The position numbers and the translations under genes are program-made. The notes under the pieces were generated by a model. That model was not told the DNA's origin and made no database searches. It saw nothing but the letters and a program-made list of their open reading frames with translations. A DNA stretch of 63,969 bases, counting the filler, from Folioceros fuciformis (Eukaryota), in NCBI GenBank assembly GCA_049999805.1. It is 9 parts of 9 records of this genome, joined end to end, with 100 filler letters (N's around TTAATTAATTAA, not from the genome) between each part and the next. Parts side by side here need not be neighbours in the genome. Positions count along the whole stretch, not along the records: positions 21,766 to 23,847 come from JBNGIO010001427.1; 8 more parts are not named here. One strand, written 5' to 3'. This document shows positions 3,693-61,943 of this stretch, piece after piece; position 1 is the stretch's first letter; the number at the start of each line of letters is the position of its first letter.

Positions 3693-3792
3693 NNNNNNNN
3701 NNNNNNNNNNNNNNNNNNNNNNNNNNNNNNNNNNNNTTAATTAATTAANNNNNNNNNNNNNNNNNNNNNNNNNNNNNNNNNNNNNNNNNNNN
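3693..3792. other. Artificial contig spacer
   Basis: N44-TTAATTAATTAA-N44, which places stops in all six frames. Confidence 0.99.
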
Positions 3793-5301: not shown

Positions 5302-5701
5302 CTTCAATATAATGCTAGGATGTCATTATGAACTTGTTGATGATAGTTGAGTGTTAACCATTGGCCGCGACTCCCACGATATGGTCGATATCATGCATTG
5401 GTCATAATTAGACAAATAACATACCATTTCAATATGTTGTGGATTTTGACAACACAAATAGCCACAACTAATGCCATATCAATATGCTCGTTAGAGCCAC
5501 AAAAACAAATGGGTTGCCACTAGCATAGCATTAGGCTATTGGGACATGTTTCTTCGTTTTGAAAAATTTGCTAATCTCTCATTCTGAAAATATTTTGTTA
5601 ACATAATGCTACATCTTGCCCTCTTGTTCTACAACACTTAAGTTATGTGTTGGTTGTCCACTTTATTATGCTCATACAATTCCCCTTTAGGGCTTCATCA
5701 T
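5302..5701. repeat. Copy 1 of a ~400-bp diverged direct repeat
   Basis: Aligns by eye with 8261-8657 (CTTCAATATAA...GGGCTTCATCAT). Confidence 0.9.
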
Positions 5702-6367
5702 TTTTAATTAGACCAAATATCTTGTATAGGTTGAACTTCCAAGGCATGAAATTCTAAACGCCCCTCCGTACGACTAGTGAGAAATCAATCAAGTACATGC
5801 GGTAATACCTTTTTCTATATGGCCAAAAAAAGAAAAGCAATATGGTACTATAGAAGATATTCAAAACATAGGAGGTCAAAGTTTAGCATGACCACATCCT
5901 TGCATGACAGCCCAATTCTTTCCACCATTCGCAGCACGCCACATCCGCAACTTAACCTACTACAATTAGCTAATGTGATGTTAAATAAGTTTAATTGATT
6001 ATTAATATTTTAAATAAAATATTATCAAATACATTAAAAAATAGCTATATAGATGCCTGCATAAAAATGTGTTGTAGACTTGCTATAAGTGGTAGTAAGA
6101 CTTAATGGTTTAAAGCTTAAGAAAAGTGTACTTTACGTTATTACTAAAAGAATAATGTTAGACATAAGTAGTAATGAGATTTAGATGCTAACTTAAGAAA
6201 AGTATGCTTAAGTCAGTAACTAAAGAGTAACATCAAATCTTATGTAAAAAGGGCCTAGCCCATGATTTAGGGTTTAGGGTTTGGGAGCATAGAGTAGTAA
6301 GACAACATTGTTCATGGGAGACTATAATCTCTCTCTGTCTCTCTCTATCTATTTAAGCAAAGACGAC

Positions 6368-6596
6368 GAGTTCTCTCCAAGCTCTTGCATTCTCTTCAAG
6401 CTCTCAGGTTCTTTCTACGCTCTCATGTTCTCTCCAAGCTCTTAGGTTCTCTCCAAGCTCTCAGGTCCTCTCCAAGCTCTTGAAATCTTTTCAAGCTGTC
6501 GAGTTCTCTCCAAGCTCTTGAGTTCTCTTCAAGCTCTCAGGATCTCTTCAAGCTCTCAGGATCTCTTTGAGCTCTCAAGTTCTCTCTAAACTCTCG
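6368..6596. repeat. ~19-bp minisatellite (consensus ~AAGCTCTCAGGTTCTCTCC)
   Basis: About 12 degenerate tandem units. Confidence 0.9.
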
Positions 6597-8260
6597 TACA
6601 TTTTTCATGATTCAATGATAAAGAGGCGCTTCTTGAGAGCTTATAGTGCTAAGGGACCATAGGTTGTGGAAGCCTAAAGTGCTCTCTCTTTGTAAAAGAG
6701 CTTTTAGGCAAAGACGGGGAATTTTGGTGAGTTCTCTCTAACCTTGTGTGCATTCTTATTGACTCATGGGTGAGTAATAAGCAGTAGCATAATAAAGAAT
6801 GCTAACCATAAGTCCTCCTCGGATAGGAGGCCTGGTGGGCTACTTTGAGGCCTAATGCTTAAGTTTGGTAATTTATGTCCTCCATACAGGTACCCTAATA
6901 GGCAAGCAGTTAGTTGATAATTCAAGGAAAGGAATTATACTTTTGGGTACCTCATATTTTTATATAAACAGGTTAAGCTTTAAAGTCCTAGATAAATTGT
7001 TCTCACACATAACAAACACAAAGGGAATCTTAGGTGCTCAACATATTTTTGTTCGATCAAAATGATAAAGTCATTAACCTTAAAGGGTTTAGAAGGTAAC
7101 GCAACTCACGTAGATTCTTCATACTCTGAGTAATTAAATTCTAAGATAAATAACTCATATAAAAATATCATAATTACTCCACCTCAATGTCTTCCGGATG
7201 ATTTTCCTAGCCCAACAATTAAAGCGAAAGAGTCAGGATATGGGTGGCTATATGCAACATAGAAAGTTTTTTGTAAGCCTTAAAAGCGTAATTCATATTG
7301 GGCAAGTAGATCTATAACTGCTCCACAAGCATTTTGCAAGAGAGGGGAAAAGAGGAAGAGCTTTAGGAGCAAAGAAAGCATTCACAGATATTTAAAAAAA
7401 AAATTATCCACAAATAAATTCAAATGATTTCTTAGCATCTTTTCAATGGAAGATACCTATCAAAATTGAGGATCACTCTATTGGTGGGGTACATATGGAG
7501 ATAAAATCAATATCCAAGACAATGCATGAACAGCAAAACCTACTTCCCAACATCTCAAAGTCTATGTCAACACCCCCTTCTTTGAAGAGATCATATGAGG
7601 AGTCAAATGCTTTTTTTGAGAACGAGAAAGCTTCAAAAAAATGTAGACAAGTTGCAAATCAATGCACTGTAAAGAGAACACTATCGTCTTCCCAAGAGAT
7701 ATTTGAAGAACATAAATTGTCCAATGAGATTTTTAAAGAAAAGGGAGATACCATGGCTATTGAGCCATTGAAGGTAGGCTTAAATATGGAAGAAATACTT
7801 GATGAAAACTCAAGTGACAAAAAGACATTCAAACCAAGACTTAAGCCACAAAGAAGAAAACATTAAAAGCTTAATGAACAGAAGGGATTCAGACGAAAGT
7901 TTAAGCAATGAAGAAAACTTAATGATGAGCCAAATATTAAACGAAGTACTGGACAAAATATTAAAGAGAATATCAACAGGGAAGTAAATTAAGATTATGA
8001 AGATTCGAATTAGACTTAATTAGTAAAGCAAACTCATGAACACTTGATCAATAGTTAAATTTATGACAATTAAATGCAAAGGATGTTATGATAATTTATA
8101 AATTATTGATATAAGAATTATGCTTCATGCGCAAGGAAATAAATTTGTTGTTTGCTATTTTTGTAATAGTCTTCATTACCATAGAGTTTACTTCTAGTCG
8201 ACATTTATAATTCGATTTTTATTATAGGTAGTGCACAATAAAAAAGCATGTGTCACGTGA

Positions 8261-8657
8261 CTTCAATATAACGCTCGGATGTCATTATGAACTTGCTAAG
8301 GATAGTTGAGTGTTAACCATTGGCTGCGACTCCCACGATATGGTCCATATCATGCATTGGCCATAATTAGACAAATAACATATCATTTCAATATGTTGTG
8401 TATTTTAACAACACTAATAGCCACAACTAATGCCATATCAATACGCTCGTTAAACCCACAAAAACAAATGAGTTGCCATTAGCATAGCATTAGGCCAATG
8501 GGACATGTTTCTTCGTTTTGAAGAACTTGTTAATCTTCCATTTTGAAAATATTTTGTTAATATAATACTACATCTTGCTCTCTTATTCTACAACGCTTCA
8601 GTTAAGTGTTTGGTTGTCCACTTTATTATGCTCATTCTCCTTTGGGGCTTCATCATC
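8261..8657. repeat. Copy 2 of the ~400-bp direct repeat
   Basis: Homologous to 5302-5701. Confidence 0.9.
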
Positions 8658-17484: not shown

Positions 17485-20400
17485 TCAATGCTCCATAGAT
17501 CCTGCCGCCGTGGGTGCTGAGGCACCCTGGTTCCTACTGTCCTGCTGTCGTGCAACACAGTCTTCAGAGGAGCTACTAGTTTGCCGTGGCACTGGCGGAA
17601 CAGGAGTCAGCAGATCCAATCCATCCTGTCGCATCTGTTGGACTTCTGGTGGTGATAATATCCGAATAGACCTCACACAGCTGACAAACTCACTGCCATC
17701 GCCACAAACAGTAAGGAACAATAAATCTAGGGCCCAAAAGCCATGTAAATAACCTCCAAATTCGCAAGGCAAACACAGGGCTTCATTTGGAGCACAAACA
17801 AATTAGAAGTCACAATACAGAGTGGGGATATGGTTGTGCAGGTAACATACTCCCAAGGATCATCTCCAACAAGAAGTATGTCGCCTTCATTGTCCACAAA
17901 AACCAGTACCCAACCAGACTGCGCAGAATCTTCAAGCTGACCTTCCATCCCAAACATGCGAGAAAGCTCGCTCCGAAGCTCAGGGTAGCCACTGAATCGT
18001 GTCATATCCAGAGACCTTCCAACAGATCCAAGCTTCACCACCTGATACAAGGCACTTTTAGAAAACACCTCAAAGTTAACAGTTGAGACTACACGGGTCA
18101 AGAATAAAATCCTGACCTTTGTAAATGTTCTGACAGGGGGCTGCACTTGAGGCCAGTTTGCAGCCCGCTGTAGTAGACTGCCTTCATCCATCCCAGAACT
18201 GCAGATCAGCCCAGCAGGAAGATCCGGTCCGGAAGCGGAAGGGTACGTCCCAGGTAGCATATTCGCCCCAGAGTACCTGTGCAGCGGCGTTCTTGAGGAT
18301 CCAGGGTTGGTCCCAAGTAAACCTGGCTCAATGGAAACTCCAAAGAGCAAGTGGCTCCTGGGATCCGGGGTTACTTGCTCTTGATCTTGAGGAGTTTCTC
18401 TGTAACCAAACGATGTTGAAGGTAACATCGGCAATGAAGCCAGGGCGGCCTGGGCAGACGACTCACCCTGAGCCATGGTAAAAGGGCCGACACCACCTGC
18501 GGACGTGTCTATTCTCGGAAGACGAGAGCTTAGACCCTGTGCTTCTCCTTGGTTGTGCTCCCTCAGAGCTGCAAACCAAGAAGGAGTGACCTGTGGATCT
18601 CGAGACACAAGGCCTGATCCTGAGATAAGCCCAGTTGGTTGTTGCAGTGGGCTCTGATTGGATCGCAACAAACTTGCATACTGTGTACCCTCGTCAGCTG
18701 GAAGTAATGAGCCTGGCTGTAATCTGCCCAGCATGCTAGGCAACGAATAAGGACTTGAAGTTGTAGGTGCTGATGAAAGCTGCAAATCAGAATCTGAGAA
18801 GCCAGCAGGTGTCCTCATAGTGGGCAAAGCAAGTGGTGACTGAGGCCTACTCGAAGAAAGCTGTAGTAGCGGTGCAGTAGGATCCGCTAGCTGCTGCATG
18901 GGTTGGTGTTGCTGCTGCTGTGACTGCTGATGATGCTGCTGTTGTTGCTGCTGTTGCTGCTGCTGCTGAAGATGTGGAGATTGTATTCTGAAATGCAACG
19001 GCTGATTTTGAAGGACCTGTTGAGGCTGCCGATGAATTATCTTGGTCGCAGCTATAGTATCTTGAAGCGCAGATGCGGCTAGCGCTTTGTAGTTGTCAGA
19101 CAGTGGCACCGGCACTGATTCACCCCGCTGGTGCATCCGTGCCCAGTGATCCCCCATAGTTCCCATAGCTCGAAAGTTCAAACTCCGCAGGCCATCCCTA
19201 TCCCCACCATCTTCATTCCGAAGCCATATTGGGGACCTCCTCAAGACTCCATCCATGTCCTCGTCCTCCCCTATAACACAACATGAAAAGGCAGCTGATA
19301 AAATCTAGTTCAGAGATCCGCACACACGCCCCCACACCAGTATGAAACTCTCACTGACATATAACGCACATTGTGTTCTGGCGTAATCAAGCACAAGCAT
19401 TGGTGGCACTATGGCATCAACGCGTGTCCTTTTTTTTGAGTTACACAAAATGCAGACCGGAGACACGGGGAGTACCATTCAGTCCAGAAAGACCCTGACC
19501 TCGTGAAGGTCGACGCTTGGGTCTAACGGGCAAATTTGCTGGTGGTTGGCAAATCATGAAGGGTGTCGTCAGGGGTTCAATTTCCCATGCCGAAACCCGT
19601 GGCTGCCGGTCACCTGCAGTAGACTCGTCCCAACCAACCTGCAATATTATGGATTGACCACTCGGACATGAGACATTTCCCAATTGATGTGCACGGCAAA
19701 AGCCCAAGCATGAAATGCCAGCACAGACCCCAGTATGGAAACTAGGTCCAGTTGCCCACACCAAAAATGGAACCGGAAATCCGGAAATAATCTTTACCTT
19801 CAAGGCTCGCCACATGGAATCCGGCCACCTTACAGGGTCCAGGTCCCCGATGCCAGTAATCGTCCCCATGTGTCTGCAGGACAGGACATCATTGTAAGAA
19901 AAATTAGATGGCCTTAACGGATGTGCATGCAGGTATTCACGGTCGGATATATATATATACCTTCTCACATTAGAATCCTCCGTCTCAAAAACCATGCGAA
20001 ATCGCATGCCAACAGACAGTTGCATCTCATGAGCAGCTTTTTGGTACTTTGCAAAGGGTATCACAAACTCCGAGGGACTCGCCCTATACAGCACAGATGT
20101 TAACAATGTCAGTTCCTACAGCAACCAGCTTCTCAACTTTCAGAGACATGAAGTTAAGGGAGCAAAATGGTGACGTCTGACCGTGGATTGTAAAATACAG
20201 TGAAACGACTGTTTGTTGCAGCAGCATGAGCCGCCGCACCAAGCACCCCGATATGCATGCTGTCACTGGAGAGGACAGATGACGGTATGGGCGCCTGCTG
20301 CCTATTGGCACGCCTGATGCCCAGCAACAATTGGCCCTTTTCATCCCTGTAACCAAAGGCCAGAGGTCATCACAAATGCGAAAACAAATGAAAAACAAAG

Positions 20401-21605
20401 AGGAAAACCCATTGGACCAACGTTTGCACTTTGCTGGTCACTGGGAGATAGACACCTGATAAAAAGGACGGCATCGCCTGATTGCAATCGCTTAGCGCTC
20501 ACGAAAACACTCCACCCTGTGGTAAGGAGATGCCTGCGCGGCTGGCCTGAAAATGAACCAGACGCCTCAGCAAACAGGACAACCATCGGACATATGGAAG
20601 TTTAGGGTGGGGGGACATCCGGCACACTATACCTCGGTATATATGACGGAAATGCCATTCCTGATCGTGAAGATCTCTGGCCACAAGCTCCTGAGCAGGA
20701 GGTGCTTGAGTGTAATCCTAACCAACAAGACAAAGAAATGATAAGATTTGAAGGCTACTCGTATAGCACGTAGTTTGTAGCACACAAACAAGAGTAGACA
20801 TACCAGTGGAGGGAAAACTTTTTCTGCAGACTTCCTTGGGATGGAAAAGCCACCATGAGTGCTCGTGTCACTGGCCGTCAAGGTCTTGCAGAAAAAGTCT
20901 GTGGGCTGTCTATTCGGCTTTCCCAAATCGGTGATCACGAGAGGGGGCTCTTTCTCCTGCAGCTGAAGCAGTCGGCGGTGGACAAGCGAGGTGCAGTGAG
21001 GACCGACACGCACTTCCAACCCACAGCTACAATGCGACACGATGGCAAAGAACGGAAAGGAGTTGACTCGAATTACCCCGGTCAAAGGTTGCAAAGTCAT
21101 CTGAGCATACACCTCGTCGGTCTCCGTATCTGCCTGCAAACGTTGTACAACACGGCTGGTAAGCACAAGGCACACCTTCACCAGCACAGGCTGGAACGGC
21201 AGCAGCGAGAGTGAAGGGCACTGGGGCTGGGGGCTCCTTACATGGAGGGTGACATTATGAAGTTGGCAAGTGAGGCAGGAACGCAAGTTGGGGTTGGGGT
21301 AGTTCAAGGCATTTGCATCGCTTTCCTTCTGAGTCGACGCGGCTACCTGCAGGCCAGCAAAGCATTGGCTTGAGCGACAGGCAGCAGCAGCATCGTGAGA
21401 GCAGCACAGGTAGAAGGTGCAAAGCAACGGCATGGGCAGCGACCCTAGTTGGAGCAAAAGCCGTGAGCCTGGCACCATGCGCATTACCATACCTGTTCCG
21501 TGTGGCCTTGTGGGAAGTAGACGACGGAAGTCCCGACTGCAGGTAGCGATACCAAAGGGCCAGCACAAGCGTGCCAGAGCTCCGGGTTCAGGCTCCGTCG
21601 CTCCC
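17485..21605 (-). CDS. ARF: Auxin response factor, class A (activator type); first exon lost at contig end
   Basis: [28 protein letters not shown] (B3), [25 protein letters not shown]-rich middle region, and PB1 domain (RTFTKV...[19 protein letters not shown]). Confidence 0.96.
18895..18968 (-). repeat. CAG/CAA repeat encoding the ARF polyQ tract
   Basis: (TGC/TGT)n on the plus strand, encoding [20 protein letters not shown]. Confidence 0.9.
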
Positions 21606-21665: not shown

Positions 21666-21765
21666 NNNNNNNNNNNNNNNNNNNNNNNNNNNNNNNNNNN
21701 NNNNNNNNNTTAATTAATTAANNNNNNNNNNNNNNNNNNNNNNNNNNNNNNNNNNNNNNNNNNNN
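21666..21765. other. Artificial contig spacer
   Basis: N44-TTAATTAATTAA-N44. Confidence 0.99.
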
Positions 21766-22055
21766 GCAGCAGGGTATTGGTGGCCAACAATGCATGCTGA
21801 TGCTGGAGAATTCATCAAGAGGTGTGATGCATGCCAAAGGGTGGGGAAGCCTACTAGGACCACACAATGGCCATTGGTCCCCATCCTAGCCCTAGCACCA
21901 TTTGAGAAGTGGGGGATTGATTTTGTAGGACCAATTCAGCCCAAGTTCAAGGGAAGGCAGAACCAATACATCTTGGTGGCAACTGACTATTGCACACGCA
22001 TGGTGGAGGCCCAAGCTTTGCCCGTGGACACAACAAATGTGGTGGCCCGATTTTT
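21766..22055 (+). mobile_element. Ty3/gypsy integrase fragment
   Basis: GYWWPTMHADA...CDACQR (zinc-binding) and PFEKWGIDFVGP...ILVATDYCT (core start). Interrupted by an LTR. Confidence 0.9.
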
Positions 22056-23801
22056 TGTCACAGTTGTTATACGTCATCCATAGAATACGCATGATAGTTA
22101 AGTTACACTCGCTTAGGTTATGTACGCACACATTGACTAAGTGACTTTTTGCAATTAGAGTTTTTAGACAAATACACATGAGACCCTTTTTATTCATTAA
22201 TTAATTCAACCAGTTTTGCTTTACACACGGCTTGCTCCCGCTGCCTATGTTCCATCGTGATTATACACATGGTATCAGAGCACAGATGCTCTACATCTTA
22301 GTAATCTCCATGCACAATGCCTAGATGGGGAGTGTCTGCTAGGGATGCACAGTTTGTAGGTACAAGCGTTCGTGGTCGCTGTGGAAGGCAACTATCCAGG
22401 CCCACACAGCACATACCCACAGAAACTGTGCTTGACCTTTATGAGCAGAACTACCCTGAAATCTATCTTAGGCAATTGGCAAAAAGACACTCTGGTGGAA
22501 GACGAACAACTTGCTCATCAAGTAAAAATCAAAAAGTTGATACACTATATAGAGCACATTGTCGACAAAGAGGACAAAATCCCAATTTGTGCTACAATTC
22601 TAGGGAGCTACCCCTTGTCGAATTACTCTTCCGCCCAAGAGCTGCAACAAAACAACGTGATTGGAATTCTGAAAGGAGGAATTGCTCACACACAATTCAG
22701 AGCACACAAGGCACTACAGACAGTACCTTCGCTGCCGTAACCCGTGTGGAGAAGACGTTGTCCTTGTTGCTGTACAAACAGGAGGTACTGAAGAGCAGAG
22801 TCGACGAGCTACGACCAGAATTGACAACACCTGACCAAATCCCTTGGATTCTTGAGGCAAAATTGCAGATCGCATAGAGACTGAGGCCTGATTTTTTCCG
22901 CTGCGCAAGGCAAGAGAGAGCGCCCAGCGTAGGTGCGAGAGGCTGACCGGATCTGAAGCGTCGTATTTCAGCCGGTGCCTCTTCACCACATTGTCCATCC
23001 TGTGTGCTAATAGGTTCTTTTGTAGCGTTGCATCTGTTCACAGGGAACAGGCATGACAGTTAGGTCAAGAAATTGAAACGCTGTTACTTTTCATTTATTT
23101 TGAAACTAACCTCCATGACTTTTAGGCTAACCAAGTAAGCTACTTAGAAGAATTTGATGAGGAGGTTAGCAAGAGAAGGCTAGGATAAGACATTATCTCT
23201 TCCTCCTCCTACTACCCCCCCCCCCCACCAAGTCTTCCCTGCAATTGTGGTCAGATTCATGTTTAGGAAAACAATAGGGAGCTAACCATCATCTGTGCCG
23301 GACATTGCAGCCTTACTAGGACTATCGTATCTACATACCCTGTTAGATTTGCATGTCCACTGCACTTGTTGATGCATTAGCTCACCAGTTTCAGAAACTT
23401 AATTTGAAACCCAAGCCTGTAATCATGTCTGGACCAACATTTACCTCTAAACTGAAAGATAAAGATCATTTCAATGGAAACAAATACCCTATCTGGCGTG
23501 TTCACATAAAGGCAATCCTGTTAGCTCGTTGTGTTTGGAACATAGTAGATGGAACGTACGCCAAGCCAAGCCCTGCTGCCACAGGAGTAGACAAGCCAAC
23601 AGCAGATGAGATCGCCAAGTGGGATCTGCACAACAGCATTGCTGTTGCACTTCTCATAAATGGCCTTGATGTTGATCTCGTGCCGGATGTGGAGCACTTA
23701 ACAGATGCCTCTGAGATCTGGAGTCAACTCGAAAGAACATACAAGAGTCAGAACATGATGAGTTTGTGTGCTATTCAAACGGAGCTGTACACACTCAAGA
23801 T
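22056..23801 (+). mobile_element. 5' part of a copia element: LTR (~22056/22065-22269), PBS (22270-22281), extra ORF (22317-22877), gag (23353-23801)
   Basis: Perfect TGGTATCAGAGC after ...ACA. Gag reads DHFNGNKYPIWRVHIKAILLARCVWNIVDG...ASEIWSQLERTY. Confidence 0.85.
22317..22877 (+). CDS. Retroelement-borne ORF of unknown function upstream of gag (186 aa)
   Basis: Open ATG ORF 35 nt after the PBS. C-terminal VEKTLSLLLYKQEVLKSRVD resembles LEGTLNAVIQRQESFSKRLD in 62201-62743. Confidence 0.55.
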   Translation: MPRWGVSARDAQFVGTSVRGRCGRQLSRPTQHIPTETVLDLYEQNYPEIYLRQLAKRHSGGRRTTCSSSKNQKVDTLYRAHCRQRGQNPNLCYNSRELPLVELLFRPRAATKQRDWNSERRNCSHTIQSTQGTTDSTFAAVTRVEKTLSLLLYKQEVLKSRVDELRPELTTPDQIPWILEAKLQIA

Positions 23802-23847
23802 TGTTGAGTTATCGAGCTCTATATGAGCTAAACTCATGTGGTGTTAG
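23802..23847 (+). mobile_element. Start of an LTR nested inside gag
   Basis: Identical to 784-829. Confidence 0.9.
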
Positions 23848-23947
23848 NNNNNNNNNNNNNNNNNNNNNNNNNNNNNNNNNNNNNNNNNNNNTTAATTAAT
23901 TAANNNNNNNNNNNNNNNNNNNNNNNNNNNNNNNNNNNNNNNNNNNN
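23848..23947. other. Artificial contig spacer
   Basis: N44-TTAATTAATTAA-N44. Confidence 0.99.
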
Positions 23948-25484: not shown

Positions 25485-25636
25485 GCCTCCACAGGGGTAT
25501 AAATACTCCTTGAGCTCCCTTGCAATATAGAGTGAGATTGGCAGAGACTCTGTGTGAGAGTGTAACCTCTCTTTCTCCTCTCCTCCTTGCTTCCTCCTCT
25601 CCTCCTTCACCATGTGGCTCCTCTAGCGATCCTTCA
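25485..25636 (+). mobile_element. 3' part of an LTR related to 4949-5283, abutting copia integrase (5' boundary undefined)
   Basis: GGGTATAAATAC...GAGCTCCCTTGCAA...CCTTCACCATGTGG...GATCCTTCA shared with the LTRs at 4949 and 56515. Confidence 0.75.
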
Positions 25637-26440
25637 AGGTGTATGGGATTGGAGTTGTCTAATAATTTCATGTGCCTCAAACAAAACATCATACTTGCCT
25701 CCAATGAATTCACCACCATTGTCAATGTGAAAGCATTTCACAAGATTGCCTGTTTGTCTTTGTGCCATAGAAATCCAGGATTCAAGACACTCAAAAACAT
25801 CACTTTTTAGCCTAAGTGGATAGACCCATGCAAATATGGAGTGGTCATTTGTTAAGGTGAGATAGTACTCAGCTCTCCCTAAAGACTTGACCTGAAGTTT
25901 TCCAACAATGTCAGCGTGAACTAATTCCAATATAGGCTGTGCCCTTTATGCCTGCTTGTTCTTAAAGGGAAGTTCCTTTTGTTTTGACAAGACATATGAA
26001 GAGCAAACTGGTAGGTGCTTAAAGCATGAAGGGAGTTTTTCCCTAAAACAGTCTAGAGAAGACATCAAATTCAGTTTCTCTCTGTTCACATGCCCAAGCC
26101 TAGCATGCCACAAATTAGCCTTAGCTACTCTTGATGTAACATAGGCCTCAGCTACAGGTGCTGAAATGTTAAGTTAGTAGAGATTGCTCACAAGCTGACA
26201 CTTGGCAATGCAAATTCTAGGTGTAAGTAGATCATAAGCAGCAATAGCTAAGCTTAAAGGTGAAACCATATCTCCCCGATTGAGTTGTTGCACTGACTGA
26301 TAAAAGGTTTTTGGACATGGTAGGGACAAACAAGACATCTTCCAGCAAGATTGCAAACCCATCAAATAAGGTAATGGACACTGAAACTAATCCCTTAACA
26401 TCTACACCTCTAGAGTCCCTCACAAAAACTAACTATGGAG
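25637..26440 (-). mobile_element. Degenerate copia pol (protease end, pre-integrase, integrase core)
   Basis: LEDVLFVPTMSKNLLSVS, LWHARLGHVN, ELVHADIVG...YYLTLTNDHSIFAWVYPLRLKSDVF...DNGGEF. Confidence 0.9.
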
Positions 26441-26922: not shown

Positions 26923-27923
26923 TCAAATCTTAGGGTTTGCCCGCTGCAATGCCTCCAAGCTTGCTCCCTCACGTGTGGGGCCAAGAGAATCAAGGTATAG
27001 AGCAACAAAGGGCAGAACAGCTAATGTGGGCGCAGGGGTGAGCAAGTCTATCGGTTGAGAGAACTTATTTACCAAATTAGCAACCTCAGTTGGGACAGAT
27101 TCCAAACTGGAAGTGATCTACCCAAGTCTAGATTGCGTCTGAACAAATTGACGAACCACGAGCACTTCGATACTGTCCAACTTCAGGCTAAGCCTTTTGA
27201 GTGCAAATGGTCTTTCTGAGAAATCAATTTGGTTTATCAATCTCGCGTCCTCTTCTACCTACACTGACCACAATTCTTCATCTTGTTGTGCCTCCAGAGG
27301 GTTTCGTCTATAATAATCTAGCTGCAAGTAGCTGTACCACTGATTTGAGAATGAAGAGTTCTGGAGATCACCCTCTCTACCTCTTGCCCCTCAATGTCCC
27401 ATGTCAAGGTGTCTATGATTAGATTGTTGTGCCGCCTGATCAGATAGTCAACCCTGGGAGCACAATCTGCCCTTGGTGAAATGAGAGAAGACCTGATAAA
27501 GTGTCTGCCTCCACTTCTAGGCATTTTAGTACAGAAGTTGCAGAATTGCCTATTTAGCATTCATTTACACCAGTTGCTACCAATATAAATGTAGAGTATT
27601 TGACATGTTGTGTGCAGGTTGGTGAGTCAGGAATCTCAGCATGATTCAACATTCCCTCAAGCAAATGTTGGATTGCGCTGAGACCTCTAACCTACTAGTT
27701 GCGCACAACATGCATTTACATGCCAAAGATTGTACAATGGAAGGCTCAGAGCATCAGGGCTCTTATACCATGCTAATAAATGTGGAAGCGTGCTAATACA
27801 AACAAACAAAATTAATTATGTAGAACAAGGAGTGTCTTAAATACAGAATTGTTTATGTCTATTGAGTTAACTAAGTAACCTAGGGTTACCTATAATAAAC
27901 TATGTTGGGTTAATACCCCAACA
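26923..27923 (-). mobile_element. LTR (27771-27923), PBS (27759-27770) and a degenerate post-PBS ORF
   Basis: Minus strand TGTTGGGG...TAGCA, then TGGTATAAGAGC-CCTGATGCTCT. Downstream MPRSGGR...CGQC...LESVPTEVANLVNKFSQ with stops and a frameshift. Confidence 0.7.
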
Positions 27924-30111: not shown

Positions 30112-30211
30112 NNNNNNNNNNNNNNNNNNNNNNNNNNNNNNNNNNNNNNNNNNNNTTAATTAATTAANNNNNNNNNNNNNNNNNNNNNNNNNNNNNNNNN
30201 NNNNNNNNNNN
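30112..30211. other. Artificial contig spacer
   Basis: N44-TTAATTAATTAA-N44. Confidence 0.99.
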
Positions 30212-32924: not shown

Positions 32925-33024
32925 NNNNNNNNNNNNNNNNNNNNNNNNNNNNNNNNNNNNNNNNNNNNTTAATTAATTAANNNNNNNNNNNNNNNNNNNN
33001 NNNNNNNNNNNNNNNNNNNNNNNN
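32925..33024. other. Artificial contig spacer
   Basis: N44-TTAATTAATTAA-N44. Confidence 0.99.
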
Positions 33025-34979: not shown

Positions 34980-35079
34980 NNNNNNNNNNNNNNNNNNNNN
35001 NNNNNNNNNNNNNNNNNNNNNNNTTAATTAATTAANNNNNNNNNNNNNNNNNNNNNNNNNNNNNNNNNNNNNNNNNNNN
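34980..35079. other. Artificial contig spacer
   Basis: N44-TTAATTAATTAA-N44. Confidence 0.99.
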
Positions 35080-37055: not shown

Positions 37056-39516
37056 TCAGCATAATCCATCAAGATATGCCTGGAGCTCAGAAAGAGTACG
37101 AAGACCAATCATGTCAGCATCCTCCTGCGTGTACTCAGAATGAACCAGTAGCAGGATCTGACCGTGAGCCTCCACGATGTTGGTCTTAATTGGTTTGAAC
37201 AAGATTGCACGCGTAGAGGAGTTGGGGAGGTAGAGCTTCATCTTGGCCACCGCCAGGGGCAATTCATCCTTAAGGGCAGCATCAACTTTCGTTACCAGTT
37301 CTGCAACTTTATCTGGAGTTGCAAATGCTTGCTCCTTGAGGACTCTCGCTTCTCCTACTACCCCCTTCCCATTCGAAGAGGGAGCAACCTTGATTGCAGT
37401 AACTTTTGTGATGAAGGATAGCATAGGCTCCACTGACAACTTTGTCACAGACATGATGAACTGCTCACAAGTGGCCTTCAATGTCTTCTCCAACTCATGT
37501 TTGGCATCTACCTGGTTCTCCAGCACTCGGGGAGAGAATACCCGAGCAAATGCTAATGCCGACCTGCTCGTAAAATCAAACATGGAGGCCTGGCCTCGCA
37601 AAATCTTGCGGAGATGCTCCAACAGGTGAGTAAAATCCAGCTCTTTGTGGGTTGCAGAAAATTCAATCTCAAAAGGGATAATCTGTTCTCGCAGTATGAG
37701 CAAATGCTTAATGAGGAAAAGCTGTCCATCCATGGACAATGCACGCCTTGTGACCAACTTGCTTGCACGCTGTATCGAGGAAGAGCATATATTTACAGCA
37801 TCCTGAGCCAGACCAGTAAATATACCTTGCTCAAGGCATCGGTAAAGCTTGGAGAGGCATGATAAGGTCTTCTCCAAAGGTGGATACCAAGCAGCATAAG
37901 CTTCCCTGCCATCTTCATCCTCGTGCCCAGCTGCAACGGCCAGAGCCATGGCTTGCTCTAGTTTAGCGGGATAGTCGAGATCCTCTGACAGAGGCAGATA
38001 ATTTGCAATTTCATCACGCATATACGTCTGCGCCCTGAAAGTCAACCGTTCTTGCACATCTGCCAGTGTGCGCAAGATTGTTGGTTTCAAGCCTGCAACA
38101 GATTCTCCTCGTCGGCTCAACTGCTCTTCTAGCATCTCGCCTTTTAGAATGTCCACCAGTTCACACAGATGATCCAGATCTGCCTCATGAATGAACTTGG
38201 GCCTCAAGGTGTCATACAGAGCTGTGCACAAGGGCTCAACTAGAGGTGTGAGGTTTGTAACCTCAGAGGACGACGAAGGGAAAAAGTGATCAAATAGCTG
38301 GTGCTCAAGCTGACAAACCTGAATCAGGTATGCACATCCCGATCTGGTCAAGGACGTCAAAGGCTCATTCTTGGCATATTCTCCCAGCCGTTGAAGCACC
38401 ACCCCTTGCACCAAAGCCAGACGCTGTTCACAATAAAGTGTATGACAGTCGGCAAGCACTTGGGCATACTCTTTCCGAGAGCCTCTGCTTTCAATCTCCT
38501 CCATCAGAGGCTTCAAGTCATGAGCTGCAGCTTTAAACCGTACATACAGTACTGACGTCTCCGATCCTTCTGCTATGAATGCCTTCCCACTGGCACCCAT
38601 ACTTTCCCTGATAGCTGCTTGCACCTGAGCTGCTCCAGCTCTCAGCACTGACAGAACATGTGACCTCACCATTCCCAAGGCCCTGGACTGCAGCTGCCTG
38701 AACTTCACAAGGTATGTGCTAGAATCGGCGTACTGAGGATTGTTGCTCACATACGATATGCATTCATCCAGTCGCTTCAGAAGCGGAAGGAAATGCCCGC
38801 TCGCCACGCTCATGGTAGGCGCATAGAACTGTGTAGCAATTGTCTCCAATTCATCGAAGTAGTTCAGCTTAGTTTTCAGGGCCTCAGCAAACTCCACAAG
38901 CCTGTCTTTCTCCATAACCAGCCGTTCACAGGCATCATGCAGAGTCTTGGTCTTAGTAGCCACAGCTTGATGCTGTGCTTGCAGGTCATCGAATAACCCT
39001 AGCGTACTGTCCACATGGCCAAGCAACTCATCACAAGTGTGCAGATGCCCTGTCAATGTGTTCACATACTGTCTGTATTTCTCCTCAGTCTCCGACTTCA
39101 TGGCGGCCTCCAGGTCCGCGTGCCATTTGTAGAATTGGTGACTATTCACCCAAGCAAGCTCGCTCAAATCAAACGTCTGCTGGGAAACGTCCACCACAGC
39201 CGAAGCCTCATGGGGCCCCGATCCCGGGCCCGGCTTGCTGCTCACACTTCCAGCCAATTGCAAATGGGGTGGCACTGGTAACTCCGCACAAACCTGTCCC
39301 AAAACAGCGATCGCTGCCAACTGCCTTTCCGTTAAAGGCGCAGTCTGCCACACAGTACACCACATTCAATGCTCCGGCTTCCACCTCTGACACCATCAAC
39401 TTGCAGCCAAGCAACGATCCAAGCAATACCTGTTCCCAAGCCGACGCGAAAGTGTAACCCTTCGAAACTGCAGCGGATCGGGGGGCAGCCGGAAGCTGCA
39501 CTGAGCTCGCCATCAT
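37056..39516 (-). CDS. COG3: Conserved oligomeric Golgi complex subunit 3 (Sec34); one intron at 39345-39429
   Basis: [84 protein letters not shown]. Confidence 0.95.
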
Positions 39517-49119: not shown

Positions 49120-52002
49120 ATGTCGAAGCGCAAGTTCGGGTTCGAGGGATTCGGGATTAGCAAGCGGTCTAGCTATGAATTCGAGGCTGGCCATGCTCCG
49201 CGGCGGATGTATGTTCCCTCGCCTTCGAGGAAGGCGACACGGAATGAGGACGGGGATTTGGAGAACATGCAGTTCGAGCAGGAGGAGGAGGTGGAAAGGA
49301 CCGGGACTGGAGAGGGTGAAGATAATGTAAAGGGGGAGCAGGGGCAGGGGCAAGAGGAGGAGATAGATCCTCTCGACGCCTACATGCTCGGGATTCAGGA
49401 GGAGGTTAAGAAAGCACCCACGAATCCGAGGCCGAAGCGAGAGGCTTTGGAGGACGAGGAAGATGACCCCATGGAGAGCTTTCTGAAGGCTCGTCGTGAT
49501 GCGGGATTGTCTCTGGCAGCGGAGGCTCTGCACGCTGGATATGATTCGGACGAGGAGGTTTACGCTGCTGCCAAGGCTGTGGATGCTGGCATGGTGGAGT
49601 ACGACTCTGATGATAATCCAGTCATCACGGTGGATCGGAAGAAGGTGGAACCTCTAGCGCCGCTGGATCACAGTGATATGGACTACGAGCCTTTCAGCAA
49701 GGATTTCTATGAAGAGACTCAGGCCATTTCAGGTTGGAGGTGTGAGAATGAGGGATGGCAGGAGTTGGAACTTGTGGCTTTATGTTGGTAGAGATGGTGG
49801 TGAATTGTGCTTGACTCTCATGCTGTTGCAGGTATGGCTGAGGAGGAGGTGAGTGCGTACAGGCAGTCCCTGGCAATTAAAGTGTCGGGGTTTGATGTGG
49901 CTAGGCCTATTAAGACGTTTGACCAGCTTGGGTTCGACTCTGCGTTGAGAGGCGCGATTAACAAACAGGGTTACGAGAAGCCTACACCTGTGCAGTGTCA
50001 GGCGTTGCCAGTGGCCCTTGCAGGAAGGGACATGATTGGCATAGCAAAGACTGGGTCGGGAAAGACTGCGGCATTTGTGCTCCCCATGATTGTGCACATA
50101 ATGGATCAGGAGGAGGTGGGGAAGGGCGAGGGGCCCATAGGGGTCATTTGTGCTCCTACACGTGAGCTGGCTCAACAGATTTATTTGGAGACGAAAAAGT
50201 TCGCCAAAGTTCATGGTATAAAGGTGTCAGGGGTTTATGGCGGGATGTCAAAATTTGAGCAGTTCAAGGAGTTGAAAGCTGGGTGCGAGGTTGTGGTTGC
50301 CACCCCTGGTCGTCTGATTGATATGTTGAAAATGAAAGCTTTAACCATGTTAAGGGCTACGTTTCTTGTACTGGATGAGGCAGATAGAATGTTTGATCTG
50401 GGATTTGAGCCTCAGATCCGGTCAATTGTGGGCCAGATAAGGCCAGACCGCCAGACTCTGCTCTTTTCGGCAACAATGCCTCGCCGGGTTGAAAGGCTTG
50501 CACGAGAAGTCTTATCAGATCCCATACGTGTGACTGTTGGGGAAGTTGGGATGGCTAATGAGGATATTACCCAGGTAGCAACTGTGCTTTCGGCAGATGC
50601 CGACAAGATGCCTTGGTTGCTTAACAAACTTCCTGAGATGGTGGACGATGGGGACGTCTTGGTGTTTTCTTCTACTAAGCTGCGAGTTGAGGAAATTGAG
50701 GGAAAGCTCAAGGAAGTAGGGTTCAAGGTGGCTGCATTGCATGGAGACAAAGATCAAGCATCTAGAATGGAAGTCCTCAGCTCTTTCAAGTCGGGGGTGT
50801 ACCATGTTCTTGTGGCTACAGATGTTGCTGCTCGTGGTTTGGACATCAAGTCAATAAAAACTGTTGTAAATTTTGATATTGCTAAGGACATGGATAGTCA
50901 TGTACACCGAATAGGGAGAACAGGTCGTGCTGGTGACAAAGAAGGTGTAGCTCACACACTTGTCACACAGAAGGAAGCACGCTTTGCTGGGGAACTGGTC
51001 AACAGCTTGATTGCTTCTGGGCAGAATGTTTCCATGGAGCTCATGGACCTAGCAATGAAGGTAATTGTTGGTCTAGTCTTGGAGTGATGTGGTGGAAATT
51101 TGCTTTCTGTGCAGCGTGTCTGTTAACATGTGGACTATGGTCTTTTGCAGGATGGCCGCTTTCGGGCTCAAAGAGAAGGGAGGAAAGGGACTGGAGGTAA
51201 AGCACAGTCAGTCTGTTAAAGTTCTATGTATCAATACTTGTTTCCTCAAAATTAAAGGTCTTTCGTGATCGCCTATGTAGGACGAGGAAAGGGAGGTGGT
51301 AAAGGTCGTGGCCGAGGCCGAGGCAGCGGGGGTGGTTCAGTTGGAAATAATGCGGGTGGCGGTGGTCGTAATGTCCGCGGTGTTGACTTTGGTATGGGCA
51401 TAGGGTACAACCCTGAATCAACAAATAGAGGTAGTCCAGCTGTGCCAGCAGCTCCTCGGGAGGTTTCAAATAGAGGCACTGCAGTGGATGCCCTAAAGAT
51501 GGGAATGATGGCACGCTTTAAGAACAGCTTTGTGGCAGCATCTGCTGGGGGTGTCAGTGGTTCCACAGGCTCTGGATCATATGCTGCAAGTGGTTCCACA
51601 CCTCAGGGTCGTGTCCATGGGGCTGGAAGCAACGCCGGCAGGGGTGGTCCTCCTGAAAATGGCAAGAGCCAGTCTTTTGGAGGCAGTGGGGCTACAGGAA
51701 TTGGTCGAGGAACTAGGATGACTGGGTTTGCTCCTAGCACTAGTGGGAAAGGTCCAACATTGGCTGGCTTCACATCGACAAGCTCAGAAGGAATCAGCAC
51801 TCAAAGCATGTCAGGCACGCAGCCGACACAGGCCTCCAGTGATTCAACAGAGCGTGGAGGAGGCTCAAGGTATGTTGGGGCATTTGCCTGTGCTACCTGT
51901 GTCTGGATAACTGCATCAAAGATGTGATAAGGTGGTTCATGCCGAACATCTCTGGTGTCTTGCAGGCGAGAAAGAAAGCGTCCATCTGGCTGGGATCGGT
52001 AA
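49120..52002 (+). CDS. DEAD-box RNA helicase, DDX42/RH24-like, multi-exon
   Basis: MSKRKFGFEGF, EEIDPLDAYM, AKTGSGKT, PTRELA, TPGRL, DEAD, SAT, HRIGRTGRAG, Gly-rich tail ending RKRPSGWDR. Confidence 0.95.
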
Positions 52003-52983
52003 CTATGCTAAGCAGGGGGTTGCCTCCTAGCCGCCGACCCTGTGCTGCAACAACGGAGCACCCTCGTCTTGGAAATCGGTAATCCCTGATAATCGACACG
52101 TCACTCAGGCGCATGTAAACAAGTTTTAATGCTGATCAGAATTTATCGGCCATCTGTTTTGTGTCGCAGGGTCTTGGGACAATGGTATAGTGGCTACACT
52201 ACCGTACCACCTGAACTTGTAGCTTCAAGTGCACTTAACGGTGTATTTACTTGTTTACATCTGGGGATTATCGTGCAATAAGGCAGGGAACGATGCAGCG
52301 TTGAGATTGGGAATGAAGCTGTCAGCAGCAACACGAAGGCCGGCAGCAGGGCATCCGAGCTGTCGGTCAGACCACATACATGAGCTACTAGAACAATATA
52401 CCGTGGTAATGACATACACCGTCGGAGCTGTACTCGGTTCTATGGAGGACGGGCGTGTCGGTGTCAGGATGGTAGTCATTTCATCTGTTCAGGGCCATGA
52501 AAAGCATTATCCGGCTTGCTGTGCACTCGAAGCAGGCGACCTGTTGGCTGACATTGATTTGCAATGCGCTCTAATAACCAATCCCAAACATGAGTGACGC
52601 TTGCTCCCTTGGATCCATGGGTGAGGGGGGGGCCTGAAGCGGCAATGTAGCTGCCTATCTAGAGATCTCTCGCTTTGCCCTATCATCGTGACCGGGGTCA
52701 GTCCCTCAGATGAGCGTAGGTGGCTTGAGAGTTAGCTCGACAGTGAGCAGATCAAAGCCACACTCCAAGAGTCTTTAATGTCGTAGATCGCCCATCGTTG
52801 CGTCCTGAACGCCTCTTGCTTTAGCGCAAGTCTGCTGCTTGCTCTTTTCTGGATAAGAGCCCGGCCCCGACGGTGTACACAATCAGGACCTCGCTATGTC
52901 GCACGCCATCAAAGTGTGCGAGAAGAGGCCCTGGCCTTCACACACAGAAATGATCCTGCGCGAATCGTTGTTCATCGTGCGTC

Positions 52984-55608
52984 ATGTCGCGGAAGATGGA
53001 TGCTTGGAGCGTGCAACTTCATTGTCGAAGACGGCGACGATGGCAGCTGCTTTTCTGCACAGCACAAAGACGAATTGGCGAGACAACAGGTCTAATGGGA
53101 AGAGCTTCCTCAAGGGACGTAACGGCCGGCACGGTGAGCGTACTATCTCAGAAGGGGCAGGTCACTGAAGCTATTGAGGCTCTGGGCGTTCTGGTGCAGA
53201 CGCAAGGGCGTTTGTCACCGTCTCTACTGTATGCTGTCCTCAAAAGCTGTGTGGTTAAGAAGGATTTGATACTGGGTCGCCTGCTCCATGCCCTTACCGT
53301 GAGACAGGGATACGAGTCGGACACGTTCCTGTGCAATCACATCGTCCGAATGTACGGGTCTCATGGCAGGTTACAGGAAGCGATGGATGTGTTCACCATG
53401 GTTGCTGAACCAAATGCCTTCATGTGGTGTTCCATAATTTGTGCGCATGGCAAGCACGGTCGACCGATGCAGGCTGTGGAGCTGTATCATCGGATGGGCA
53501 GGTCAAGTGTGAAGCCGGATGGGCATGTGTTTGTAGCAGCGCTACAGGCTTGTGCAAGGGGGGGAGATATAAAAAGTGGAGAGCAGGTACACGCCGATGT
53601 TCTGGCCAGTGGGCTCGAGCCCGATATGTTTGTTTACAATGCTTTGGTTGACATGTATGCAAAGTGTGGCCGCCTGGAGGAAGCTCGAGGGGTGTTTGAC
53701 GGGCTTCCTGGCAAGGATGTGGTGACCTGGACTGCTCTGATAGGAGGATATTCCCAGCAGGGCAGGGGTCAGGAAGCCCTTCACCTCTACACCGCTATGC
53801 AAGAAAAAAGCGTTGGCGCACCTGATTCTGTGACATATGTCTGCCTCCTTCAGGCCTGTGCAAATGTTGGTGCCCCTGCCCTGAAGACTGGAAAGCAGCT
53901 TCATGCCCAGGTTGGAGAACGAGGGCTTGATTTGGCCGTCGGGAGCAGTTTGGTAAACATGTATGCTAAATGTGGCAGCCTCCTGGATGCACGTGGTGTG
54001 TTTGACAGGCTTTGTCGTAAGGATGTGGTGACATGGAATGCAATGATAGCAGGATATTCCCAACGGGGAATGGGTCAGGAAGCCCTTTATCTTTACAGCA
54101 ACATGCTAGAAGAAGGCAGCACTGCACCAGATTCTGTGACATTTGTGTGCCTACTGCAGGCTTGTTCAAATGTGGGCGTTCCAGCTTTGGAGGCAGGCAA
54201 GCAGCTTCATGCAGCGATTGGAGAGCGAGGACTTCTGGCCGATGTTGTTGTAGCTAACAGTTTAGTGAACATGTACGCAAAGTGTGGTAGTTTACAGAAT
54301 GCTCAGGAAAGTTTTGATGGGCTTGAGCACAAGGATGTGGTGACGTGGAATGCAATGATCGCAGCCTATTCCCAGCGGAGCATGGGTCAGCAAGCTCTCA
54401 ATCTTTACACGGCTATGCTAGAACCAGGTACAATGGAACCAAATACAGTAACATTTGTGTGCCTTCTTAAGGCATGCGCAGGTGTGGGCACCCCAGCTTT
54501 AGATAAGGGGAAGGAGCTTCATGCTCAGATTGTTGAAGGAGGGCTGCAGGCTGATACTGTCGTAGGTTGCAGTCTTGTGAACATGTATGCGAAGTGTGGC
54601 AGCCTCCGGGATGCTCAGAGCGTGTTTAATGGGCTCTCTGAAAAAAATGTGGTCTCGTGGACTGCTTTGATATCAGGATACGCTCAGCAGGGCATGGATC
54701 AGGAAGCCCTTCATCTCTACACTGCTATGCAAGAAGAGGGACTTTCTGCTCCTGATTCTGTGACATTCGTGTGCCTTCTGCAGGCATGTGCAAACGTGGC
54801 AGCTTTGCACACAGGGAAGCAGCTTCATGTGGAAATCACAGAACATGGGCTCCACACTGATGTGTTTGTAGCGATTAGTTTAATCGATATGTATGGCAAG
54901 TCTGGGAGCATGGTTGACGCCCAGCTGGTGTTTGATGCATTGCCTGACAGAGACATTGTGGTCTGGAATGCACTTATTGCAGGATATTCCCGCCAAGGGG
55001 ACTTTGGGGTGGTCTTTGACGTGGTTGACAGAATGAGGGAGCATGGCATTCAGCCAGACGGCGTCACTCTTGTTAGTGTTTTAACAGTATGCAGTCACGC
55101 AGGTCTGGTGAACACGGGACGGGAGTATTTTGAATCCATGACCAGACACTGCGGCCTCAAACCGACCGTTGAGCACTACACTTGCTTGGTAGACCTCCTA
55201 GGTCGTGCAGGTCAACTGGAAGAGGCGCTAGCCATAGTAAAGACAATACCTGTACCGCCCGACGCTGCAATTTGGCACACTCTGTTGGGTGCCTGTAGGA
55301 AGTGGAGCAACGTGAATATAGCATGTCATGCTTTTGATGAGGCAGTGAAGTTAGACGAAAAAGATGCCGCAGCATATGTCTTCATGTCCAACATATATGC
55401 CAGTGCCCAAATGTTGGAGGAGGCACAGGAAATGCAGCGGAGGAGAATAAAGATAAGGGCATGGAAGCAAGCAGGTCAGAGCTGGTGGACAGATACAGAT
55501 GGACTGGTGCACACTTTCGCGGTTGGGGACATGAAGCACGTAGATCGTGAACATATATACAAAAGCTTAAAACAGCTCAGTTCCCAAATTTTCGAAGGAG
55601 GGGACTGA
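52984..55608 (+). CDS. PLS-class PPR protein with E1/E2/E+ extension and no complete DYW domain (candidate organellar RNA-editing factor)
   Basis: Intronless 874-aa ORF of repeated P-L-S triplets (DVVTWNAMI / DSVTFVCLLQAC / SLVNMYAKCG), HYTCLVDLLGRAG, WHTLLGACR, YVFMSNIYA, KQAGQSWWTD...VHTF. Confidence 0.96.
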   Translation: MSRKMDAWSVQLHCRRRRRWQLLFCTAQRRIGETTGLMGRASSRDVTAGTVSVLSQKGQVTEAIEALGVLVQTQGRLSPSLLYAVLKSCVVKKDLILGRLLHALTVRQGYESDTFLCNHIVRMYGSHGRLQEAMDVFTMVAEPNAFMWCSIICAHGKHGRPMQAVELYHRMGRSSVKPDGHVFVAALQACARGGDIKSGEQVHADVLASGLEPDMFVYNALVDMYAKCGRLEEARGVFDGLPGKDVVTWTALIGGYSQQGRGQEALHLYTAMQEKSVGAPDSVTYVCLLQACANVGAPALKTGKQLHAQVGERGLDLAVGSSLVNMYAKCGSLLDARGVFDRLCRKDVVTWNAMIAGYSQRGMGQEALYLYSNMLEEGSTAPDSVTFVCLLQACSNVGVPALEAGKQLHAAIGERGLLADVVVANSLVNMYAKCGSLQNAQESFDGLEHKDVVTWNAMIAAYSQRSMGQQALNLYTAMLEPGTMEPNTVTFVCLLKACAGVGTPALDKGKELHAQIVEGGLQADTVVGCSLVNMYAKCGSLRDAQSVFNGLSEKNVVSWTALISGYAQQGMDQEALHLYTAMQEEGLSAPDSVTFVCLLQACANVAALHTGKQLHVEITEHGLHTDVFVAISLIDMYGKSGSMVDAQLVFDALPDRDIVVWNALIAGYSRQGDFGVVFDVVDRMREHGIQPDGVTLVSVLTVCSHAGLVNTGREYFESMTRHCGLKPTVEHYTCLVDLLGRAGQLEEALAIVKTIPVPPDAAIWHTLLGACRKWSNVNIACHAFDEAVKLDEKDAAAYVFMSNIYASAQMLEEAQEMQRRRIKIRAWKQAGQSWWTDTDGLVHTFAVGDMKHVDREHIYKSLKQLSSQIFEGGD

Positions 55609-61844: not shown

Positions 61845-61943
61845 GTAGTGCTGAAAAAGTCTGAGGGGATCAAAAGATAGAATCTACAAGGGGGCTTTTC
61901 TGTAGGTAAGACTCTACTCTACCTAGACGTACAGTTGTGCTGA

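Follow-up and report, generated by a model that had tools for sequence, protein, structure and literature searches.

We analyzed a 63,969-nucleotide stretch of the Folioceros fuciformis genome assembly (GCA_049999805.1; hereafter the window), in which a long terminal repeat (LTR) retrotransposon, el1, carries an extra open reading frame (ORF) between its primer-binding site (PBS) and a copia-type gag. The contig that holds the element is short, 2082 bp (21766–23847), and all features of el1 described here are on the plus strand. Its 5′ LTR (22056–22269, 214 bp, TG...CA) directly adjoins the PBS, an exact match to TGGTATCAGAGC (22270–22281) that we take to be of the initiator tRNA-Met type. A GATGCT motif, read from the sequence, follows at 22285–22290 and contains the start of a 12-codon upstream ORF (uORF; 22286–22324), the end of which is overlapped by the ATG of an intact frame of 186 amino acids, ORF1 (22317–22877). 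ORF1 and gag are separated by 475 nt (22878–23352) that contain a C-rich tract as well as several ATGs; none of the forward frames of this spacer, with stops read as X, matches a Pfam family. The gag is represented by its N-terminal 157 residues (23353–23826), which match PF14223 (Retrotran_gag_2, E = 2e-15 over 23353–23823) and DUF4219 (E = 0.0046). An earlier, sequence-only reading of this DNA had placed a separate copia gag about 475 bp past the stop of the extra ORF, and that arrangement holds. A repeat of very high copy number (depth 16497 in the bin 23796–23847) takes over where the gag frame ends, at 23826, and the contig itself stops at 23847. El1 combines a copia gag of the PF14223 type with a TG...CA LTR followed directly by a tRNA-Met-type PBS; its contig, like that of el2 described below, ends before pol, so that neither has a linked reverse transcriptase.

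The el1 stretch was compared with public contigs of the same organism; two DNA read runs of one sample, and no listed RNA run, contain it. The insertion target is a fragment of a high-copy gypsy integrase (21790–22055, plus strand; Pfam rve, E = 0.0011, below cut-off), and loose contig ends fall at 22055, which sets the start of the el1 LTR. Depth is 1260–2733 in the gypsy flank versus 12.7 for el1, and public contigs of other gypsy copies run past 22055 uninterrupted, without the el1 insertion. A second version of the el1 LTR differs at 22089, 22090, and 22110 (about 1.4% divergence); contigs of read run X1 show the variant letters alone at these positions, those of run X2 show both versions, and the window contig has the other one. 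This second version is probably the 3′ LTR, as would be expected if el1 were complete and fairly young; the 3′ LTR and the target-site duplication of el1 fall outside the window. A further run, X4, presumed to be RNA, matches the el1 stretch at two short low-complexity patches only. Differences between run X3 and 21766–23847 are nearly all C>T (152) and G>A (88); this run behaves like a bisulfite-converted library, and methylation of the element could be read from it.

The window contains four matches to TGGTATCAGAGC with at most one mismatch, versus 0.31 expected. In el2, on the plus strand, the 5′ LTR spans 61936–62157, its end fixed by the PBS and its start approximate, taken from a weak alignment to the el1 LTR. 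The el2 PBS (62158–62169) is again an exact match, GATGCT lies four bases beyond it (62174–62179), and a 180-codon frame follows, ORF2 (62201–62743), made up of 179 sense codons and one in-frame TAG (62336–62338). The el2 contig ends 17 nt past the ORF2 stop, before any gag. El2 is inserted into the leader of an old copia of opposite orientation; this minus-strand element (57392–61778) is degenerate, with many stops and frameshifts, and retains gag (PF14223, E = 9e-17) and RVT_2 (E = 1.5e-41) matches. The third junction, el3, lies on the minus strand, where a PBS with one mismatch (27759–27770) and a GATGCT (27750–27755) are followed by an 80-codon ORF (27318–27560), the region downstream being broken by stops and frame changes. 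Pieces of copia pol lie farther along the same strand (25634–26432; Pol_BBD, gag_pre-integrs, and rve, E = 1.1e-9, 4e-11, and 1.2e-4). The fourth match, el4 (TGGTATTAGAGC, one mismatch; 56501–56512, minus strand), marks an LTR-PBS junction absent from the sequence-only reading. Because GATGCT occupies a fixed spot, 3–4 nt past the PBS, in three of the four junctions, el1, el2, and el3 are marked as related. The earlier claim of three LTR-PBS junctions with a common GATGCT is thus borne out, with an exact PBS in el1 and el2 and a single mismatch in el3.

ORF1 and ORF2 start alike, with ATGCC(T/G)AG(A/G) encoding Met-Pro-Arg (MPR) 35 and 31 nt past the PBS, respectively. Both ATGs have A at position −3, and the short uORFs that precede them start in GATGCT with a pyrimidine at −3. 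An MPR-starting ORF had been proposed after each of the three junctions, which is correct for el1 and el2 but not for el3: there the MPR lies at 27524, 234 nt past the PBS, internal to the 80-codon ORF that begins 12 codons earlier, and stays open for 68 codons only. The surroundings of this el3 ATG match el1 at 15 of 17 nt (blastn, E = 0.35). The lengths of 187 and 181 codons proposed for the two measurable ORFs are likewise accurate for intact ORF1, counting its stop, whereas the 181 codons of ORF2 hide the in-frame TAG.

Frame lengths were set against first-order Markov simulations (4000 each), which were trained on each element's own leader, making the test conservative. An ATG-initiated ORF of at least 186 codons was reached in 3 of the 4000 el1 simulations, and a run of at least 194 codons with no more than one stop in 19 of the 4000 for el2. 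For el3, the simulations reached an ATG-initiated ORF of at least 80 codons 971 times in 4000 and a run of at least 111 codons with at most one stop 2647 times. Frame length exceeds chance in el1 and el2, both frames being significantly depleted of stops, but not in el3. Stops in the other forward frames number 19–21 per 360 codons in el1 and 9–13 per 200 in el2, and the multiple-testing burden is small because the window has only four junctions. A second ORF of 99 codons in another frame (22441–22740, plus strand) lies wholly inside ORF1, a region that is stop-poor in two frames.

The proteins predicted from ORF1 and ORF2 have a similar layout. Net charge is concentrated in the N-terminal half (+10 in ORF1 and +12 in ORF2) and is +2 and 0, respectively, in the C-terminal half. 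In the C-terminal segment, the fraction of heptad a/d positions occupied by Leu, Ile, Val, Met, or Phe is 0.67 in ORF1 versus 0.47 in shuffled sequence (reached by 18 of 2000 shuffles) and 0.55 versus 0.37 in ORF2 (9 of 2000), for segments that were picked after the helices predicted by AlphaFold2 (AF2) had been seen. AF2, run without an alignment, models ORF2 with one 70-residue helix (residues 64–133 of the part following the internal stop) in a block with a predicted confidence (pLDDT) of 90–96; for ORF1 the pLDDT is 43, and a helix at residues 135–169 reaches about 50 only. Nucleic-acid binding and oligomerization would fit this charge and heptad pattern. Position, beyond-chance length, and the charge and heptad layout are features that ORF1 and ORF2 have in common.

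The centers of the two proteins are less alike. ORF2 has a CxxH-x18-CxxC arrangement there, zinc-ribbon signals below threshold from Pfam (Cas12f1-like_TNB, E = 0.014; 16 bits versus a 26.3-bit cut-off) and from the PDB (ribosomal protein eS26, E = 0.74), and nearest ESM clusters annotated as "CCHC-type domain-containing" (0.79–0.80), which we treat as a lead only. ORF1 lacks two of the four zinc-ligand positions, and AF2 confidence at the center stays below 50 in both proteins. The sequence-only reading had described a central CxxC-like motif in all three ORFs; ORF2 does contain CTNC, the CGQC of el3 occurs only past a stop, and the CRQR of ORF1 is no CxxC. The zinc knuckle of copia gag nucleocapsids has the form CX2CX4HX4C, of which the CTNCG... 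and CRGHG... stretches of ORF2 are reminiscent, although their spacing does not fit and zf-CCHC is unmatched; ORF1 is without any CxxC. Small proteins that join a coiled coil to a basic nucleic-acid-binding part are found in other reverse-transcribing elements, such as the virion-associated P3 of caulimoviruses, encoded upstream of the capsid gene, and LINE-1 ORF1p, encoded upstream of the reverse-transcriptase ORF2. Their likeness to the proteins described here is one of functional analogy only; Pfam returned no such family for either ORF, and the domain order differs from that of P3.

The reading we favor, with a probability of roughly 45%, is that in a short-LTR copia lineage gag is preceded by a genuine additional sense ORF, about 180 codons long, which encodes a fast-evolving, small, basic coiled-coil protein. 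El1 and el2 would be members of this one lineage of tRNA-Met-primed copia elements, with LTRs of about 215–220 bp, and the ATG of the extra ORF would be the first in good context after the PBS on the genomic RNA, translated after leaky scanning past the weak upstream ATGs. The protein would be strongly basic and probably disordered in its N-terminal half and would have a C-terminal helix with a heptad pattern and, in ORF2, a zinc-ribbon-like CxxH...CxxC center; it may act on the RNA of the element itself as an oligomerizing, nucleic-acid-binding accessory, such as a chaperone or a packaging factor. Candidate routes to gag-pol downstream are splicing, shunting, and reinitiation. We infer both translation and function of the ORF. 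The copia lineage with a conserved 5′ accessory protein that had been proposed from sequence alone is thus supported in part, by the same-place, stop-depleted, non-gag MPR frames and by the gag that follows one of them in el1; its conservation could not be shown.

Several results weigh against this reading, beginning with the comparison of the two ORFs. Homologous ORFs in two other elements had been claimed, and neither pairwise nor profile tests reached significance, which the sequence-only reading had itself named as grounds for rejecting that claim. The local Smith-Waterman score of ORF1 against ORF2 was 37, a value that 157 of 1000 shuffles attained (shuffle scores, 31.5 ± 5.3); tblastn of the leaders in every forward frame returned nothing but the PBS; and phmmer with either ORF, or a profile built from both, retrieved neither the other ORF nor that of el3 among 1544 six-frame ORFs of the window. 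At the DNA level, the three leaders have only the PBS and about a dozen following bases in common. The best BLASTP match between ORF1 and ORF2 was the C-terminal 20-mer pair already pointed out in the sequence-only reading (E = 0.021 as a single comparison). In favor of relatedness, collinear global alignment was mildly raised, with z scores of 2.0–2.9 under six parameter sets and the score reached by 18, 18, 5, 13, 2, and 3 of 500 shuffles; it aligns the C-terminal helices with each other, and likewise the CR..G.NP stretches. The raised global score is suggestive of relatedness and no proof of it, and homology of ORF1 and ORF2, which we infer, is not demonstrable here.

Database searches add to these unfavorable results. 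Phmmer of ORF1 against 1.84 billion representative sequences returned 0 matches; a word-based protein search yielded 90 candidates for ORF1, none with E ≤ 1, and 158 for ORF2, again none; and a search of the PDB gave 0 matches for ORF1 and, as the best for ORF2, eS26 at a non-significant E of 0.53–0.74. The missing relatives weigh less, however, because the genuine gag of el1 was also unmatched (782 word-based candidates among longer proteins, none with E ≤ 0.001), indicating that the elements of this genome are poorly represented. Neither ORF matched a Pfam family at cut-off, gag families and zf-CCHC included, nor was there a match of at least 0.9 for either in the ESM Atlas, and Rfam gave 0 matches in the window. 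A captured host gene was rejected as an origin of the ORFs, as no search returned a homologue. The possibility that they are the N terminus of a known gag, raised in the sequence-only reading as a ground for refutation, was checked and likewise rejected: the ORFs match no gag family, and el1 has a separate gag farther on that starts at an ATG of its own.

We also scanned for the pattern of PBS, 20–45 nt, and ATGCCKAGR, which itself forces MPR and makes the frequency of MPR uninformative. There were 0 viral contigs and 39 metagenome loci, and none of the latter resembled ORF1, ORF2, the el3 ORF, or gag below an E of 0.9. The metagenome loci have mostly ORFs of 3–90 codons, and five complete loci on very long contigs carry an unrelated ORF of 172 codons. 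In one copia-like metagenome locus (L034, 828–2200, plus strand), an MPR 20 nt past the PBS belongs to a 432-codon first ORF with a gag-like N terminus, and in another (L027) a frame of more than 376 codons starts with MPRTSRR 41 nt past the PBS. An MPR right after the PBS can thus open the main long ORF in other elements.

The coding signal itself is unfavorable to the extra-ORF reading. Codon-position composition is flat, with G at position 2 of 0.21–0.23 versus 0.12–0.13 in gag and reverse transcriptase, and a codon-usage score trained on 13 pieces of transposable-element ORFs rates the ORF1 frame equal to the overlapping 99-codon frame. The products are rich in Arg, Ser, and Leu, as is translated random sequence, and their ESM recognition values of 1327 and 1987 fall below the 2300 reached by 91 of 100 known proteins. 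El4 is without GATGCT and without an MPR ORF, having a 40-codon ORF only before its contig ends 285 nt past the PBS. El3 does not qualify as an instance of the ORF-before-gag layout: its pol pieces follow in copia order about 950 nt past the open MPR frame, its leader matches no Pfam family in any forward frame (stops read as X), and no gag was found between PBS and pol pieces, leaving no room for an extra ORF plus gag. ORF1 and gag are joined on one molecule by a single 2-kb contig, the el1 family stands at about single-copy depth, and the ORF is seen as one intact frame (el1) and one with a stop (el2). Finally, a first cistron of 186 codons together with the spacer ATGs would block scanning to gag.

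A more specific form of the favored reading is that el1 and el2 represent an undescribed, bicistronic short-LTR copia lineage, in which a fast-evolving basic protein with a zinc ribbon and a coiled coil is encoded first and gag-pol is expressed from a spliced or bypassed message. The protein would act on the RNA of its own element, in the manner of small accessory proteins in pararetroviruses and LINEs. We regard this fuller version as unlikely; if true, it would supply the first 5′ accessory gene typical of a copia lineage.

Possible, although in our judgment doubtful, is the alternative that the frames are non-functional or regulatory leader ORFs, either relics or young de novo frames, whose peptide is inert and on which any constraint would lie at the level of RNA (a hairpin at the PBS, or U5/PBS pairing to the region of the start codon) or of uORF translation that throttles gag. 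Such an origin would account for the lack of detectable homology between the ORFs and of database relatives, for base composition that is even across codon positions and the failure of the codon score to tell frames apart, and for the random-like composition rich in Arg, Ser, and Leu with its low ESM recognition. RNA folding offers a possible cause for the shared start. In the predicted folds of el1 and el3, GATGCT is base-paired to the PBS in its 3′ half, and these folds are no better than those of shuffled sequences (z = 0.05 for el1, and likewise for the el3 equivalent). In the predicted el2 fold (62150–62220, plus strand; −22.3 kcal/mol, z = −2.9, with 2 of 200 shuffles folding as well), the LTR end and PBS pair with the start-codon region of ORF2, and this pairing with ATGCC...AACAGGA could account for ATGCC without a protein. 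RNA constraint nevertheless leaves unexplained why about 180 codons remain free of stops in one frame in two elements that cannot be aligned, nor does it explain the basic N-terminal half, the heptad-patterned C terminus, and the confidently predicted 70-residue helix of ORF2.

We consider it improbable that LTR, PBS, and ORF form part of a different or non-autonomous element to which gag was joined by misassembly at a repeat or by an old rearrangement, so that no copia element would possess both. The el1 contig is a 2082-bp piece in a chain of small contigs, that of el2 ends before any gag, and the ORF-like region of el3 is without one. Furthermore, public contigs break at 23160–23182, within a repeated segment of 5–10 times the depth of its neighbors, and depth differs across that break (12.7 versus 7.8 in X1). 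Opposing this, the stretch from ORF1 to gag contains no further LTR or PBS, and at least two related copies (contig depths 10.1 and 16) match patches of 22743–23231 in the same order, from the C terminus of ORF1 through the spacer to about 23231, while other public contigs join 23159–23231 to gag at 23630–23784. El3, in addition, links the same type of PBS/GATGCT leader to copia pol domains. An assembly chimera is improbable as the origin of the el1 layout. Across the PBS and codons 1–48 of ORF1, two short contigs share about 81% identity with el1, and the loose ends of two such contigs extend the ORF1 frame by 10 and 9 codons without a stop, which is too short for a test. Least probable of all is that ORF1 is an upstream exon spliced across a leader intron to yield an N-terminally extended Gag, for although spliced introns are documented in Ogre elements (PMC6317226) and a GT at 22785–22786, after codon 156, would join in phase with an AG at 23345–23346 that is preceded by a moderately pyrimidine-rich stretch and lies 6 nt before the gag ATG, GT/AG pairs are many and a third of them are in phase, both sites depart from consensus, and gag has its own ATG with an in-frame stop two codons upstream.

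If the extra ORF of el1 and el2 is real, it fits the known theme of additional ORFs in LTR retrotransposons and is not a new kind of system. Background given in the sequence-only reading, that 5′ ORFs are a feature of Ogre/Tat gypsy elements and 3′ ORFs of SIRE copia elements, agrees with published accounts (PMC6317226, PMC2533021). Extra ORFs may lie upstream or downstream of gag-pol and are most often found between pol and the 3′ LTR (review, PMC7264820), and long non-coding copia leaders exist as well (PMC3352295). Neumann et al. (2019; PMC6317226) set a minimum of 250 codons for extra ORFs, classified them by orientation and position, and reported 582 copia elements in 45 similarity groups; in the passages covered, the sole copia ORF named as typical of a lineage is the 3′ ORF of SIRE. 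In the literature covered, to which the supplementary eORF tables of PMC6317226 (eORF-5′F included) do not belong, no short 5′ sense ORF appears as typical of a copia lineage. With 186 and 180 codons, ORF1 and ORF2 do not reach the threshold of that survey, and ORFs of about 180 codons would have been missed by it.

The closest parallels in position are the sense ORFs upstream of gag in Ogre gypsy elements (e.g., Medicago Mtr70, 1527 bp; PMC2533021) and ORF0 of rice Retrosat2 (PMC4093653, PMC3485330). As in el1, a sense ORF without assignable function lies between the 5′ LTR/PBS and gag in Ogre/Tat and Retrosat2, and the Ogre/Tat ORFs are, as here, highly heterogeneous between families (PMC6317226). 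Ogre/Tat elements differ in being gypsy, in their far larger ORFs, and in the large size of the elements and their LTRs, and the primer of Medicago Ogre is tRNA-Arg. The domains reported for Ogre, Retand, and Athila ORFs in the text of PMC6317226 are absent from the Pfam matches of ORF1 and ORF2, Ogre ORF1 having been compared by its description. SIRE elements resemble el1 and el2 in being copia with an extra sense ORF whose sequence is scarcely or not at all alike from one group to another; such an ORF is present in 74% of them and falls into 19 groups (PMC6317226). The SIRE eORF-3′F (env-like) differs in lying between pol and the 3′ LTR and in having at least 250 codons by the cut-off of that survey, whereas the ORFs described here lie 5′ of gag, have about 180 codons, and belong to elements with very short LTRs. 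Even within one lineage, extra ORFs are little alike (PMC6317226), which bears on the weight of the negative homology tests above.

Extra ORFs define lineages of LTR retrotransposons, and a few have proved functional. For an additional ORF to count as family-wide, it should occur in all or most copies and be conserved like the other proteins of the element (Vicient and Casacuberta 2020). Should the frames of el1 and el2 prove real and family-wide, they would indicate that one class of accessory genes has systematically escaped notice, and how gag-pol is translated behind a first cistron of 186 codons would become a concrete question. Should they prove not to be conserved, they would counsel caution, as transposable-element leader ORFs at the same position and with the same start could then arise without detectable protein homology.

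The window as a whole consists of nine contigs of 1.1–21 kb each, chained by eight identical linkers (N44-TTAATTAATTAA-N44) at 3693–3792, 21666–21765, 23848–23947, 30112–30211, 32925–33024, 34980–35079, 56116–56215, and 62761–62860. Since the contigs are unrelated or unordered, neighborhood across linkers carries no information. Host genes elsewhere in the window indicate a land plant. An auxin response factor gene with several exons lies at 17727–21490 on the minus strand (ARF_AD, E = 1.2e-28; AUX_IAA, E = 1.9e-5); within it, 20627–21490 appears by eye to be a B3-like exon and has no Pfam match as one read-through frame. COG3 (37056–39365, minus strand; 769 amino acids with both domains) and a DEAD-box helicase (49804–51087, plus strand; 427 amino acids) are each encoded by a single uninterrupted frame, and these may be intronless genes or retrocopies. 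An 884-residue pentatricopeptide repeat (PPR) protein with an E motif is encoded at 52954–55608 (plus strand), where a tandem repeat of about 310 nt (53623–54852) corresponds to the PPR array. Two direct repeats, 92% identical and 2959 bp apart (5302–5601 and 8261–8560), may represent the two LTRs of a small element. Short tandem arrays are present at 6341–6614 (19-nt unit, about 10 copies) and at 63522–63882 (118-nt unit, 3 copies).

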